Of a DNA stretch of 4,110 nt, positions 1 to 4,110 are shown piece after piece. How positions within the stretch are numbered: the first letter of the stretch is position 1; every line of letters starts with the position of its first letter. The stretch is from a virus (taxonomy: Duplodnaviria; Heunggongvirae; Uroviricota; Caudoviricetes): positions 1 through 4,110 of IMG/VR virus record IMGVR_UViG_2568526230_000001; one strand, given 5' to 3'. The position numbers and the translations under genes were made by a program. A model generated the notes under the pieces. The model had not been told where the DNA came from. It saw nothing but the letters and a program-made list of their open reading frames with translations, and searched no databases.

Positions 1-570
1 GTCTGAAACGCAGGCTGCAACGCCGAAAGCAGTAAAGGCCGCGTATGACCTTGCTAACGGTAAATATACTGCGCAGGATGCCAGCACGACGCGAAAAGGC
101 CTTGTCCAGCTCAGTAGCGCCACCAACAGCGCGTCTGAAACGCAGGCTGCAACGCCGAAAGCAGTAAAGGCCGCGTATGACCTTGCTAACGGAAAATATA
201 CTGCGCAGGATGCCAGCACGACGCGAAAAGGCCTTGTCCAGCTCAGTAGCGCCACCAACAGCGCGTCTGAAACGCAGGCTGCAACGCCGAAAGCAGTAAA
301 GGCCGCGTATGACCTTGCTAACGGTAAATATACTGCGCAGGATGCCAGCACGACGCGAAAAGGCCTTGTCCAGCTCAGTAGCGCCACCAACAGCACGTCT
401 GAAACGCAGGCTGCAACGCCGAAAGCAGTAAAGGCCGCGTATGACCTTGCTAACGCAAAATATACCGCTCAGGACGCCACGACGGCACAAAAAGGGATAG
501 TCCAGCTCAGTAGTGCCACCAACAGCACGTCTGAAACACTGGCCGCGACATCGAAAGCTGTTAAGGCGGT
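1..570 (+). repeat. Tandem direct repeats, 132-bp period, about 4.3 copies, in frame within the tail fiber gene (44-aa shaft repeat)
   Basis: The motif gtctgaaacgcaggctgcaacgccgaaagcagtaaaggccgcgtatgacc... recurs at 1, 133, 265, 397 and 529. Copies 1-3 are near-identical, copy 4 is diverged and copy 5 is partial. Frame 2 translation gives [44 protein letters not shown] per unit with no stops. This resembles the phage tail fibre repeat family (recalled from memory, not searched). Confidence 0.9.
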
Positions 571-1921
571 AATGGATGAAACGAACAAGAAAGCGCCCTT
601 AAATAGTCCTGCACTGACCGGAACGCCAACAACACCAACTGCGCGACAGGGAACGAATAATACCCAAATCGCAAGCACGGCTTTCGTTATGGCTGCGATT
701 GCCGCCCTTGTAGATTCGTCACCTGATGCACTGAACACGCTGAACGAGCTGGCTGCGGCGCTGGGCAACGACCCGAATTTTGCGACCACCATGACTAACG
801 CGCTTGCGGGTAAGCAACCGAAAGATGCCACCCTGACGGCGCTGGCCGGACTTACTACTGCGGCAGGCAAGTTTCCGTATTTTACGGGGAATGATGTCGC
901 CAGCCTGGCAACCCTGACAAAAGTCGGGCGGGATATTCTTGCGAAATCGACCGTTGCTGCCGTTATCGAATACCTCGGTTTACGAGAACTCGGCACAAGC
1001 GGGGAGAAAATACCGTTACTCAGTACAGCGAATACCTGGACTAATCGACAAACATTCAGCGGTGGCCTTTCTGGTGAACTATCCGGCAATGCTTCTACAG
1101 CTGCAAAATTAAAAACTGCCAGGAAAATAAGCAATGTGGCTTTTGATGGTTCCTCCGATATCACATTAAAAGCAAGTCATGTTGGTGCGTTTGCCTTAGG
1201 GAAAACAGGAAGCACCGTTGCGAATGATAAAGCAGTTGGATGGAACTGGAGTAGCGGAGCCTATAACGCAACTATTAGTGGTGCATCAACGTTAATTATT
1301 CATTTTTATATGGGAGAAGGAAGTTGTCCTGCAGCTCAGTTTCGGATTAATTATAAAAATGGCGGTATTTTTTATCGTTCAGCCCGTGATGGTTATGGTT
1401 TTGAAGCCGACTGGTCCGAATTTTACACCACCACCAGAAAACCTTCAGCAGGAGATGTTGGTGCACTGCCGTTATCTGGTGGTCAACTGAATGGTGCACT
1501 GGGTATCGGAACATCCAGTGCTCTTGGCGGTAATTCGATTGTATTGGGTGATAATGACACGGGCTTTAAACAAAATGGCGATGGTAATCTGGATGTTTAT
1601 GCTAATTACGTCCATGTTATGCGCTTTGTTCCCGGAAGCATTCAAAGTAATAAGACCATAAATATTACGGGGCGTGTTAATCCCTCGGATTACGGTAACT
1701 TTGATTCCCGTTATGTGAAAGATGTTCGACTTGGTTCACAGCAATATTATGGAGTGAACAACTGGCGAACATGGAATTTCCAGTGCCCTTCAGGTCATGT
1801 ATTGTCTGGTATTAATGTTCAGGATACAGGGTCTAACTCTGCCGATAATATAGCGGGTGTTTATTACAGACCCGTTCAAAAGTATATAAATGGCACCTGG
1901 TATAATGTAGCGAGCGTTTAA
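2..1921 (+). CDS. Side tail fiber protein, 5'-partial (constant shaft plus currently expressed variable C-terminal tip, cassette A)
   Basis: Frame 2 is open from the window edge to the TAA at 1919-1921. The ORF track starts at Met-572 only because that is the first ATG; the upstream frame is open and encodes the 44-aa repeats. The C-terminal half is AT-richer and ends in the conserved motif [17 protein letters not shown]. It resembles E. coli prophage Stf-family fibers (recognition from memory). Confidence 0.88.
589..1041. repeat. Left arm of long perfect inverted repeat (partner 3658-4110); coding, conserved fiber region
   Basis: The reverse complement of 3658-4110 matches 589-1041 base for base in every stretch compared by eye (590-690, 689-760, 761-1040). 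The first mismatch is at 1042 (ctaat vs ccaat). The outer boundary cannot be determined because the right copy runs off the window at 4110. Confidence 0.9.
963..988. other. Putative recombination (crossover) site for a Din-family serine invertase, left copy (gix/cix/pix/hix-like)
   Basis: TTATCGAATACC-TC-GGTTTACGAGAA is a 26-bp imperfect palindrome with 12-bp half-sites around a central TC. It matches Mu gixL (recalled as TTATCCAAAACCTCGGTTTACAGGAA in this orientation) at about 22 of 26 positions. It lies in the codons for VIEYLGLRE, so exchange is in frame. Confidence 0.7.
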
Positions 1922-1922
1922 T

Positions 1923-2450
1923 ATGATGCACTTAAAGAACATAAAAGCGGGTAATGCTAAAACACTGGAACAGTATGAGTTAACAAAGAAACACGGAGTT
2001 ATCTGGCTTTACTCTGAGGACGGAAAAAACTGGTATGAGGAAGTGAAAAACTTTCAGCCAGACACCATAAAGATTGTTTACGATGAAAATAATATTATTG
2101 TCGCCATCACCAGAGATGCCTCCACGCTTAATCCCGAAGGTTTTAGCGTCGTCGAGGTTCCCGATATAACGGCCAATCGTCGGACCGATGATTCCGGTAA
2201 GTGGATGTTTAAGGACGGAGCTGTGGTTAAACGGATTTATACGGCTGACGAACAGCAACAACAGGCCGAATCACAAAAGGCCGCATTGCTTTCCGAAGCT
2301 GAATCAGTCATCCAGCCGCTGGAACGCGCTGTCAGGCTGAATATGGCAACAGACGAGGAACGCACACGACTGGAAGCATGGGAACGCTACAGTGTTCTGG
2401 TCAACCGTGTGGATACGGCAAATCCTGAATGGCCACAAAAGCCTGAATAA
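1923..2450 (+). CDS. Tail fiber assembly protein (Tfa/U-like chaperone) cognate to cassette A
   Basis: A 175-aa ORF starting ATGATG one nucleotide after the fiber stop (TAA-t-ATG). The N-terminus [14 protein letters not shown]...[13 protein letters not shown] is typical of Tfa proteins of lambdoid/e14/Mu-type phages and is paralogous to the - strand ORF 2479-3012. Confidence 0.85.
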
Positions 2451-2455
2451 AAATT

Positions 2456-2475
2456 AAGGCCCGTTATCGGGCCTT
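2456..2475. terminator. Putative bidirectional intrinsic terminator hairpin between the convergent tfa genes
   Basis: A perfect 8-bp GC-rich stem (aaggcccg / cgggcctt) with loop ttat. On the - strand transcript it is followed by AAUUUUUAUU. On the + strand the downstream U tract is weak (gucucauu), so the call is stronger for the - direction. Confidence 0.55.
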
Positions 2476-2478
2476 GTC

Positions 2479-3012
2479 TCATTCAGGTTGTTCGGGAAAT
2501 GTTACTGGCAGGCTGGAGGTGTCTGTGGATTCGACTTTCTGCGCATAGAGCATCCACTCGGTTAATTTTTGTTTATTCTCGTCGGAAATGATGCCCAGCC
2601 GTAGCTGTGAGTCCCATAGCTGAGTTTTATCCCTGACAAGTTGCAACAGGCTCTGCTTTTCATTTTCCGCTTGTTGCCTCTGCTCTTCCTCGGTATAAGT
2701 TCGCTTTACCACTACGCCATCTTTGAACATCCATTTCCCCGAAATATCAGCCCGGCGATTTGCTGTAATATCAGGTAATTCAACGACGCTTGCGCCTTCC
2801 GGATTAATTGCTGAAACATCCTTTTCAATACAAATAATAACGCCGTTATGGTCATAGACCATTTTCAAAGTGTCTGGCTGGAAATTCTTTTGTTCCTCAT
2901 ACCAGTTTTTTCCATCAGCTGAATAAAGCCATTTGATGTTAAATTGCTTTGTTAGCTGGTATTGCTCTTTTGTTTTAGGGTTGCCAGCAGTAATGTTTTT
3001 TAAGTGCATCAT
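2479..3012 (-). CDS. Tail fiber assembly protein (Tfa/U'-like chaperone) cognate to cassette B
   Basis: A 177-aa ORF beginning MMHLKNITAGNPKTKEQYQLTKQ... The N-terminal roughly 110 aa are highly similar to the + strand Tfa and the C-terminal roughly 60 aa are divergent. A GGGGAG Shine-Dalgarno-like motif lies upstream of the ATGATG, which sits 2 nt after the stop of the upstream - strand fiber cassette. Confidence 0.85.
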   Translation of the reverse strand: MMHLKNITAGNPKTKEQYQLTKQFNIKWLYSADGKNWYEEQKNFQPDTLKMVYDHNGVIICIEKDVSAINPEGASVVELPDITANRRADISGKWMFKDGVVVKRTYTEEEQRQQAENEKQSLLQLVRDKTQLWDSQLRLGIISDENKQKLTEWMLYAQKVESTDTSSLPVTFPEQPE

Positions 3013-3014
3013 CG

Positions 3015-4110
3015 TTAAATACTCCCCGCGTTATACCACGTCCCATTAATGCAATACTGAATTGGCCTTGCCTGTGTTGTATCAATTAATTCATCACGGT
3101 TTCCGTTAACTGAACCCGTAACGACATAACCTGACCTGTCAGACCAGCCGGGACCATTCCATGTCTGAACAGATGACAGACCGCCAAGGCGAATACCTGT
3201 AATAAACCTTGAGTTACATTCTGTCCGCGTATATGCACCAACATCTCCCGCTGAAGGTTTTCGTGTCGTGGTATAGAAATCTGACCAACCTAATTCAAAC
3301 CCATAACCATCACGAGCCGACCTGTAGGAAATGCCACCATTTTTATAATTCACACGGAATTGTACGGCAGGACAGCTACCAGCATTTATATTAAAGTGAA
3401 GAATTAATGCAGATGCACCACCAATCATGGCGTTATATGCACCACTATCCCAATTCCATCCAACGGATGTATCACCATTAACAGTATTACCTGTTTGTCG
3501 GAGTGCAAATGCATTGACATTTTTGGCACTAATTGAAATATCGCTAGAACCATCAAAACCAACTCCAGCAATTTTTCGTGCTGTTTTCAGCTTTGTTGCA
3601 GTAGCGGCATTGCCGGACAGTTCCCCAGAAAGGCCACCGCTGAATGTTTGTCGATTGGTCCAGGTATTCGCTGTACTGAGTAACGGTATTTTCTCCCCGC
3701 TTGTGCCGAGTTCTCGTAAACCGAGGTATTCGATAACGGCAGCAACGGTCGATTTCGCAAGAATATCCCGCCCGACTTTTGTCAGGGTTGCCAGGCTGGC
3801 GACATCATTCCCCGTAAAATACGGAAACTTGCCTGCCGCAGTAGTAAGTCCGGCCAGCGCCGTCAGGGTGGCATCTTTCGGTTGCTTACCCGCAAGCGCG
3901 TTAGTCATGGTGGTCGCAAAATTCGGGTCGTTGCCCAGCGCCGCAGCCAGCTCGTTCAGCGTGTTCAGTGCATCAGGTGACGAATCTACAAGGGCGGCAA
4001 TCGCAGCCATAACGAAAGCCGTGCTTGCGATTTGGGTATTATTCGTTCCCTGTCGCGCAGTTGGTGTTGTTGGCGTTCCGGTCAGTGCAGGACTATTTAA
4101 GGGCGCTTTC
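3015..4110 (-). CDS. Alternative side tail fiber C-terminal cassette (cassette B, Sv'-like), 5'-partial, currently in the silent orientation
   Basis: The - strand frame is open from the window edge (4110) to the TAA at 3015-3017. The first roughly 150 codons in the window are identical to the + strand fiber (inverted repeat), followed by a diverged homologous region and then a unique tip. It ends in ...RPIQYCINGTWYNAGSI, conserved with cassette A. Met-4010 from the ORF track corresponds to internal Met-689 of the + strand gene, so it is probably not the true start. Confidence 0.8.
   Translation of the reverse strand, partial: KAPLNSPALTGTPTTPTARQGTNNTQIASTAFVMAAIAALVDSSPDALNTLNELAAALGNDPNFATTMTNALAGKQPKDATLTALAGLTTAAGKFPYFTGNDVASLATLTKVGRDILAKSTVAAVIEYLGLRELGTSGEKIPLLSTANTWTNRQTFSGGLSGELSGNAATATKLKTARKIAGVGFDGSSDISISAKNVNAFALRQTGNTVNGDTSVGWNWDSGAYNAMIGGASALILHFNINAGSCPAVQFRVNYKNGGISYRSARDGYGFELGWSDFYTTTRKPSAGDVGAYTRTECNSRFITGIRLGGLSSVQTWNGPGWSDRSGYVVTGSVNGNRDELIDTTQARPIQYCINGTWYNAGSI
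3658..4110. repeat. Right arm of long perfect inverted repeat (partner 589-1041)
   Basis: See the left arm. Coordinates pair as p and 4699-p. The arm extends to the window edge and may continue beyond it. Confidence 0.9.
3711..3736. other. Putative invertase recombination site, right copy (inverted relative to 963-988)
   Basis: TTCTCGTAAACC-GA-GGTATTCGATAA is the exact reverse complement of the 963-988 site. The central dinucleotide is identical to the left site in inverted orientation, as required for inversion rather than deletion. Confidence 0.7.

Follow-up and report, generated by a model that had tools for sequence, protein, structure and literature searches.

The stretch of DNA analysed here (4,110 nt; hereafter the window) very probably represents the Gin-type tail-fibre switch of Phi1, a P2-like Escherichia coli prophage of the ST131 strain EC958. 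The locus is already known, having been published as the invertible segment of EC958 Phi1 (PMC4134206), and it is homologous to the G segment of phage Mu and the B segment of Shigella boydii. The window differs from the canonical element in its right flank, which is a mirror image of the constant fibre shaft; this mirror arm is probably a chimeric assembly path generated from a culture in which the segment was present both ways round.

The segment is delimited by two 26-bp crossover sites, located at 963-988 (TTATCGAATACC-TC-GGTTTACGAGAA, core 975-976) and 3711-3736 (core 3723-3724), the latter being the exact reverse complement of the former. Both are imperfect dyads in inverted orientation, each with two 12-bp half-sites enclosing the same 2-bp core. 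The preliminary description had placed two inverted Gin/Cin/Pin/Hin-like sites at exactly these coordinates. This was borne out with a position weight matrix derived from the published hixL/R, gixL, cixL/R and pixL/R sites (PMC3241671, Table 3; bix sites excluded), under which only these two positions reached 32.2 bits, against 8.1 for the runner-up in the window. Maximum scores from 1000 dinucleotide-preserving shuffles averaged 9.2 (sd 2.6) and did not exceed 23.0 bits; both sites therefore lie far above the shuffled controls, and chance palindromes can be ruled out. In direct alignments the site was identical at 24 of 26 positions to bixL of S. boydii, at 23 to cixR and at 22 to gix of Mu (the letters of the latter taken straight from the Mu record), and its TC/GA core is that of gix and bix. 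The published 5' site of EC958 Phi1 (PMC4134206, Table 3) agrees with the left site letter for letter. According to the translations, both fibre frames read VIEYLGLRE through the site, i.e. the sites occupy the same codons of the two genes, as had been proposed.

The constant (shaft) part of the tail-fibre gene occupies positions 2-962 (plus strand), in a frame open past the left end of the window. It includes 4.3 copies of a 132-bp tandem repeat (1-567, plus strand), encoding a 44-aa "phage tail fibre repeat" (Pfam PF03406 Phage_fiber_2, five stretches, E = 1.3e-89); the first three copies are 99-100% identical among themselves, and for region 1-700 the best complete E. coli genome is just 93.5% identical. 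The repeat junction specific to the window (121-157, NSA|SETQ) had no exact counterpart in the related loci compared here, the GTDB representative genomes, IMG/VR or the JGI metagenomes. The shaft can be aligned up to the site with the 740-aa and 661-aa fibres of two related loci (L002 and L004, respectively), and the full-length fibres of the relatives, 740 aa with tip A and 661 aa with tip B, diverge only past this point.

Between the sites, the ORFs and Pfam domains agree with the gene content described previously, i.e. one tip and chaperone pair on each strand. The plus strand carries the variable fibre tip A (989-1921; 310 aa; PF12604 gp37_C), which shares 79% identity with tip B over its first 159 aa and is followed by the tail-fibre assembly chaperone gene tfaA (1923-2450; 175 aa; PF02413 Caudo_TAP, E = 4e-38). 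The minus strand carries tfaB (2479-3012; 177 aa; PF02413, E = 3.6e-37) and the variable tip B (3015-3710; 231 aa). A G+C-rich, terminator-like hairpin (AAGGCCCG-loop-CGGGCCTT; 2456-2475), with a T run on the minus strand, is situated between the convergent chaperone genes. The two alternative C-termini of the fibre, together with their respective chaperones, are thus in opposite orientation, and the crossover lies inside the fibre gene, with either tip in frame.

Comparison of closely related loci revealed both orientations of the segment. In L002 (O25b:H4) the order is shaft-A ... B'-invertase, while in L004 (JJ1886) and L005 it is shaft-B ... A'-invertase; each flank retains its outer half-site, and the inner base that marks A or B is swapped. 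Both junctions have 100% identical counterparts in many ST131 genomes, among them sibling isolates of differing orientation (1162C vs 1162T7, p4A vs p11A). When the best place of at least 99% identity was considered, the shaft-A junction was found in approximately 205 records and the shaft-B junction in approximately 126; counts obtained at 80% coverage or more do not distinguish the orientations, since the first ~500 nt of the two tips are 72-97% identical. Positions 960509-961409 of EC958 match the 901-nt shaft-tip B junction at 100% identity, and the site therefore falls at the published coordinates c961070..961095. In one culture of EC958, the 2773-bp invertible segment of Phi1 was represented in each orientation by about 50% of the PacBio reads (PMC4134206). 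A look-up of the exact TfaB protein returned only canonical A or B contexts, plus one odd locus (L009, see below).

In relatives showing 99.6-100% identity, a serine invertase is encoded directly past the right site; its gene starts 55 bp after the site, which would correspond to about position 3791 here. The protein (199 aa; PF00239 Resolvase and PF02796 HTH_7) matches the Gin structures 4m6f and 3uj3 (E = 3e-100) with the catalytic Ser9 aligned, and such a Gin orthologue adjoins the sites in every canonical copy examined. The location of a serine invertase to the right of the site, anticipated in the preliminary description, thus holds in these relatives and fails in the window, where 3737-4110 is mirrored shaft and no invertase ORF was found among the ORFs of the 4,110 nt. 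Of the first 240 nt of the relatives' invertase gene, 234 are identical to Mu gin; the Fis-bound recombinational enhancer, which acts in cis, is classically located in the 5' part of the invertase gene. The invertase of the relatives also contains K46/R47/K50 and Q150/R153/L154, the residues described as unique to Fis/enhancer-dependent invertases (PMC3798978). These features suggest that the switch may depend on Fis and an enhancer. The window contains neither an invertase gene nor an enhancer, and the function of this particular copy rests on its relatives and on supply in trans.

In the canonical element, the Gin-like serine invertase encoded just past the right site would bind as dimers to the two 26-bp sites and cut at the central TC/GA dinucleotide, after which half of the resulting tetramer would rotate by 180 degrees and flip the 2.77-kb segment. 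The shaft would then be joined in frame either to tip A and its Mu U-like chaperone or to tip B and its Mu U'-like chaperone. This tip swap would be expected to change receptor specificity, and is likely to affect the host range of the phage.

Among known systems, Phi1 of EC958 is the same element: it has an identical 5' site, the same spacing of the sites (2773/2774 bp) and a P2-like context that likewise lies between serS and dmsA, and it shares the 199-aa invertase with the relatives. It differs from the window in its right flank, composed of the invertase gene with a TTATTTAAAACC half-site instead of mirrored shaft with a shaft-type outer half-site, and the window contains at least two extra near-identical 132-bp shaft repeats. 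The G segment of Mu has the same layout (Sc-gixL-Sv-U / U'-Sv'-gixR-gin). Its chaperones are equal in length to those encoded here and highly similar to them (TfaA is 90% identical to U, and TfaB 97% identical to U'), the C-terminal 165 aa of tip B are 88% identical to S', and region 1859-3513 of the window is 88% identical to Mu DNA (1.66 kb). Tip A is only distantly similar to Mu S, with 51% identity over the C-terminal ~80 aa. The catalytic domain of Mu Gin is nearly identical to that of the relatives' invertase, whereas the C-terminal DNA-binding part has diverged; moreover, the host phage in the present case is P2-like and its constant shaft (Phage_fiber_2 repeats) bears no relation to Mu Sc. 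Of the published crossover sites, the closest are those of the S. boydii B segment (PinB/bix; GenBank D00660, sites according to PMC3241671): the outer half of bixL, GGTATTCGATAA, is identical, and the canonical right site of the relatives matches bixR at 23 of 26 positions. The bix inner half-site contains TTCCTG where TTCTCG is present here; the comparison with the B segment covers the sites. The C segment of P1 (Cin/cix) and the P segment of e14 (Pin; layout stfP-tfaP / tfaE-stfE-pinE) belong to the same Din family and similarly encode alternative fibre C-termini with chaperones, but their cores are AA rather than GA and the site identity is lower (18-23 of 26).

In the preliminary description, the locus was regarded as an invertase-driven switch bracketed by two 26-bp imperfect palindromes. 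The type of system has stood (a Din-family tail-fibre tip switch, with an invertase in the relatives), but the repeats are far longer: the sites form part of a 540-nt inverted repeat (589-1128 and 3571-4110; 97% complementary), which is perfect over 453 bp (589-1041), starts to diverge at 1042, reaches 374 nt outside the sites and ends only with the window. Since the repeat runs 374 bp outside the sites, the right flank is the mirror image of the constant shaft: 3737-4110 (minus strand) is a copy of 589-962 without a mismatch, and it sits where the relatives have the invertase gene. On the minus strand, at least 124 codons of shaft are thereby joined in frame to tip B, as the plus-strand shaft is to tip A, and the orientation that is expressed cannot be read from the window; the earlier statement that cassette A is expressed in the sequenced orientation was accordingly abandoned. 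The layout of the canonical relatives, in which a single constant region and the non-fibre DNA of the invertase lie on opposite sides of the segment, does not apply to the window, both of whose flanks are shaft, and the outer half of the right site is of the shaft type seen in bixL, whereas the canonical relatives carry the invertase-side type GGTTTTAAATAA. Inside the sites, an imperfect inverted repeat (989-1465, pairing with 3234-3710) covers the homologous N-terminal part of both tips. The C segment of P1 is associated with long inverted repeats (0.6 kb) that lie inside the cix sites, while in the window the perfect repeat extends outside the sites too; a P1-type reading was therefore rejected for the outer 374 nt. 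It does suit the inner repeat, the counterpart of the "508 bp imperfect inverted repeat" described in Phi1 (PMC4134206).

Such a mirrored layout was found in only one of 5426 complete E. coli genomes and in none of 118 matching phage records, and was absent from the five IMG/VR contigs carrying the chaperone intergenic region, among which L016 is a rearranged remnant. The single E. coli genome is a hybrid assembly that contains the arm three times, with frameshifts in two of the copies and a fold-back at the origin of the record. The shaft-A and shaft-B junctions are each normal in one orientation, and only their joint presence on one molecule is unusual; the mirrored layout is therefore undetectable by a test of single junctions.

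On balance, we favour the interpretation that the mirror arm is an artefact, in which a chimeric assembly path would have run through the shaft and tip A ... tip B and then into the reverse-complemented shaft. This is favoured because the outer arms are free of mismatches over 374 nt while divergence of the inner repeat sets in at position 1042, because the right site has a shaft-type outer half, and because the only complete genome with this layout has a misassembled look. Moreover, Forde et al. (2014) reported spurious alternate-orientation contigs at the Phi1 locus itself and warned of artefactual duplications (PMC4134206). If the arm is chimeric, its existence points indirectly to active flipping of the segment in the sample that was sequenced.

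It is less likely, though conceivable, that the mirrored layout is real and arose by recombination between two copies, the right site of the first being joined to the left site of an identical second prophage copy or of a sister chromosome. Such joining could occur by the action of the invertase or by homologous recombination through the flipped 2.7-kb segment, and would yield a shaft-segment-shaft' locus together with a reciprocal invertase-segment-invertase locus elsewhere. The junction does fall exactly within the crossover site, where the core meets the outer half-site. Fis/enhancer-dependent invertases, however, strongly prefer intramolecular inverted sites, which argues against such an event. 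ST131 genomes contain several related prophages (a median of three matching places per genome), and L009, which combines an invertase-type flank with a second, slightly different flank of the Phi4 3' type (TTATCTAAAACC, the Phi4 3' site in PMC4134206), is roughly the reciprocal type of product; flank mixes of this kind suggest that site recombination between different prophages may occur, and Forde et al. proposed a trans action of the Phi1 invertase on the sites of Phi4 (PMC4134206). Nevertheless, both arms of the window are of the Phi1 type and identical over 374 nt, so that two identical copies would be needed, the sole finished genome with this layout appears to be misassembled, and a duplicated arm could not be packaged in a P2-size capsid.

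We consider it improbable that the mirror is a genuine arrangement, consisting of one invertible segment between two complete convergent fibre operons with their arms joined head to head. In that case the phage would produce the two tips simultaneously, and the only effect of inversion would be to exchange them between the operons. Far less credible still is a pair of independent, static, convergent full-length fibre operons, whose palindromes would simply be conserved coding sequence (VIEYLGLRE) with no role in recombination: both frames are indeed open through the sites to the ends of the window, and the repeat is long and lies within coding sequence, but near-identical genomes differ exactly by inversion between the sites with unchanged flanks, switching has been documented at the level of reads in one culture (PMC4134206), the sites match the defined crossover sites of five systems far beyond chance, and a Gin orthologue accompanies them in all canonical copies examined.

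From the biological point of view, the locus brings nothing new, as invertase-driven switching of tail fibres has been understood since the work on Mu, P1 and e14. Its practical value is that of a caution: actively flipping segments generate mixed reads, from which assemblers can make mirror-image duplications; these are then annotated as extra full-length fibre genes, while the neighbouring invertase gene is lost from the assembly. A real mirror structure would represent a modestly interesting case of an invertase-mediated rearrangement that goes beyond simple inversion.

The 26-bp sequence at 963-988 reads TTATCGAATACC-TC-GGTTTACGAGAA, and its exact reverse complement is found at 3711-3736. 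When aligned with experimentally defined crossover sites (PMC3241671, Table 3; Mu gix was taken directly from the Mu genome record), it matches bixL of Shigella boydii in 24/26 positions, cixR in 23/26, gix in 22/26 and hixL in 21/26, and its central dinucleotide (TC/GA) is the same as that of gix (Mu) and bix (S. boydii). A scoring matrix derived from hix, gix, cix and pix sites (bix excluded) gave 32.2 bits at these two positions exclusively, the next best window position reaching 8.1; across 1000 dinucleotide-preserving shuffles, the highest score reached in each had a mean of 9.2 (sd 2.6) and never exceeded 23.0. The inverted pair of Din-type sites proposed in the preliminary description is thus confirmed in position, in its match to the defined sites and against every shuffle, as is, by translation, the motif VIEYLGLRE, which both fibre frames encode across the crossover site.

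The first of these frames (+ strand) belongs to a tail-fibre gene of which the window contains the 3' two-thirds; it is open at the left window end, is closed by a stop codon at 1919-1921, and comprises the constant shaft (2-962) and tip A (989-1921). The second (- strand) extends from the right window edge to 3015 (365 codons, no internal stop) and includes tip B (3015-3710). ORF and domain matches identify two Caudo_TAP chaperone genes, A (1923-2450, + strand, 175 aa) and B (2479-3012, - strand, 177 aa), and two convergent tip plus chaperone cassettes do lie between the sites, as had been claimed. A perfect 8-bp G+C-rich hairpin between the convergent chaperone genes (2456-2475) could serve as a terminator in either orientation. 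The record of the Mu-like phage D108 has two annotated terminators in the matched S/U/U'/S' part of its G segment.

Window positions 1-567 (+ strand) are made up of a 132-bp shaft unit repeated in tandem 4.3 times, which encodes a 44-aa Phage_fiber_2 repeat (PF03406, E 1.3e-89). Repeats 1-3 (1-396) are mutually 99-100% identical and bring the window at least two 44-aa repeats beyond those of the related 740-aa and 661-aa fibres, in which the repeats are about 92% alike. The closest complete Escherichia coli genome is just 93.5% identical over window positions 1-700, and the repeat junction NSA|SETQ (121-157) had no exact match in GTDB representative genomes, IMG/VR or JGI metagenomes. Either the repeat array expanded recently, or an assembler went round it more than once.

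By sequence comparison, the invertible segment is a homologue of the Mu G segment. Mu DNA is 88% identical to window positions 1859-3513, with Mu U 90% identical to chaperone A, U' 97% identical to chaperone B, and S' 88% identical to tip B over the last 165 aa of the latter; the likeness of Mu S to tip A is confined to the last ~80 aa (51%).

The window matches a P2-like E. coli prophage, typical of ST131, integrated between serS and dmsA. Canonical copies align contiguously from window position 222 to ~3740 with 99.6-99.7% identity (strain O25b:H4), the homology ending inside the right site, which there reads TTCTCGTAAACC-GA-GGTTTTAAATAA. A 199-aa "recombinase family protein" (WP_000905061.1) is encoded 55 bp past this site, followed by P2 gpU, tape-measure, tube and sheath genes. 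It contains Resolvase and HTH_7 domains, is matched at E 3e-100 by crystal structures of Gin (4m6f, 3uj3), with Ser9 aligned, and has K46/R47/K50 and Q150/R153/L154 (Gin numbering), which McLean et al. found to be uniquely conserved in Fis/enhancer-dependent invertases (PMC3798978). The first 240 nt of its gene are identical to Mu gin at 234/240 positions, and the protein looks like a Gin orthologue. By analogy with the position of the Mu enhancer, a putative enhancer would lie within the conserved 5' region of this gin-like gene.

Both orientations of the segment occur in relatives with identical flanks, bearing out the predicted inversion. The order is shaft-A-tfaA/tfaB-B'-invertase in strain O25b:H4, and shaft-B-tfaB/tfaA-A'-invertase in JJ1886 and a further relative (L005), with the same flanking genes and invertase. 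In side-by-side comparison the outer half-sites keep to their flanks, TTATCGAATACC always on the shaft side and TTATTTAAAACC always on the invertase side, while the first base to differ between A and B (54 nt inward of the site) changes sides, which maps the exchange to a ~70-nt interval containing the core. Each of the two shaft-tip junctions is matched over 901 nt, at 100% identity, by many ST131 genomes, among them apparent sibling isolates (1162C versus 1162T7, p4A versus p11A); by an approximate count of best places with at least 99% identity, the A junction is present in ~205 records and the B junction in ~126.

Forde et al. (2014, PMC4134206) described in prophage Phi1 of ST131 strain EC958 a 2773-bp invertible tail-fibre segment with sites gccgTTATCGAATACCTC|GGTTTACGAGAA (5') and gccaTTATTTAAAACCTC|GGTTTACGAGAA (3') and a 508-bp imperfect inverted repeat, ~50% of PacBio reads supporting each orientation. 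Our shaft-B junction query matched EC958 at 960509-961409 with 100% identity, so the window site lies at the published coordinates c961070..961095. The preliminary description had correctly recognized a system that is ordinary, well known and already in the literature.

Two further copies are altered. In GCA_005670925.1 (locus L008, 11236-11992) tip A is broken by a 755-bp insertion with an IS1-like terminal sequence (GGTAATGACTCCAACTTACTGATAG...). IMGVR_UViG_651053022_000007 (850-3438) is a rearranged relative with a gin-side-type site at ~850 and a shaft-like stretch of 93.5% identity; the crossover site and ~20 further nt are deleted, and tip A breaks off at window position 1719, where tip B takes over from 3624 on, apparently in frame. 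The copy seems to have decayed or recombined.

The window as given is a mirror-flanked version, not the canonical switch. Its sites are embedded in a 540-nt inverted repeat (589-1128/3571-4110, 97% complementary), overlooked in the preliminary description; the repeat has zero mismatches over 589-1041 and diverges from 1042, within the segment; a weaker continuation (1136-1465/3234-3563, 72%) corresponds to the homologous N-terminal part of tips A and B. The perfect repeat reaches 374 nt outside the sites, ended only by the window edge, and the sequence right of the right site (3737-4110) mirrors the shaft and shares the reading frame of tip B. Because of this layout, the invertase expected just right of 4110 is not where predicted, mirrored shaft occupying the place where relatives carry the gene, and expression of cassette A cannot be concluded from the window, as tip B is also fused to shaft.

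The mirror-flanked layout is probably an assembly artefact, and we consider it rather likely that the window is a chimeric path through a read set of mixed orientation. The 2.7-kb segment in one orientation would overlap perfectly with the reverse complement from the other, which would let an assembler walk from the shaft through A...B and back into the shaft. This reading is supported by the absence of divergence in the outer arms, by the right site being an exact copy of the left, by the published precedent (spurious contigs of alternate orientation; PMC4134206) and by the rarity of the layout: 0/118 matching phage records and 1/5426 complete E. coli genomes cover the window through to 4110. 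The single genome, NZ_CP170378.1 (hybrid assembly; 4757840-4775080 and 1-16043), has three copies of the P2-like baseplate-fibre arm, two of them with frameshifted genes; the inverted middle copy folds back in a DUF6645/SASA gene exactly at the record origin, just downstream of a normal invertase-bearing copy. The flipping segment probably caused this RefSeq "complete" record to be misassembled. A real rearrangement, which we regard as unlikely, finds some support in GCA_964045795.1, whose mixed flanks indicate that sites belonging to different prophages may undergo exchange. There (contig CAXJUO010000001.1; locus L009, 9277-12075), the same invertible segment has the Phi1 invertase gene and its site (TTATTTAAAACC) on one flank, and the other flank bears TTATCTAAAACC, the 3' site of EC958 Phi4 (PMC4134206), and then a methyltransferase gene, part of a chaperone gene and the trp operon; neither flank contains shaft. 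The layout points to sites from two different prophages having recombined, or having been misassembled.

The identity and geometry of the sites, the homology, the invertase beside the sites in relatives and the two orientations among genomes can be read from the sequences, and switching within one culture was reported for EC958 (PMC4134206). Serine invertases cleave DNA at the 2-bp core and exchange strands by subunit rotation, requiring a Fis-bound enhancer (PMC3798978, among others), and inversion here would presumably proceed in this way. Tips A and B may confer different LPS receptor specificities, tip B resembling Mu G(-).
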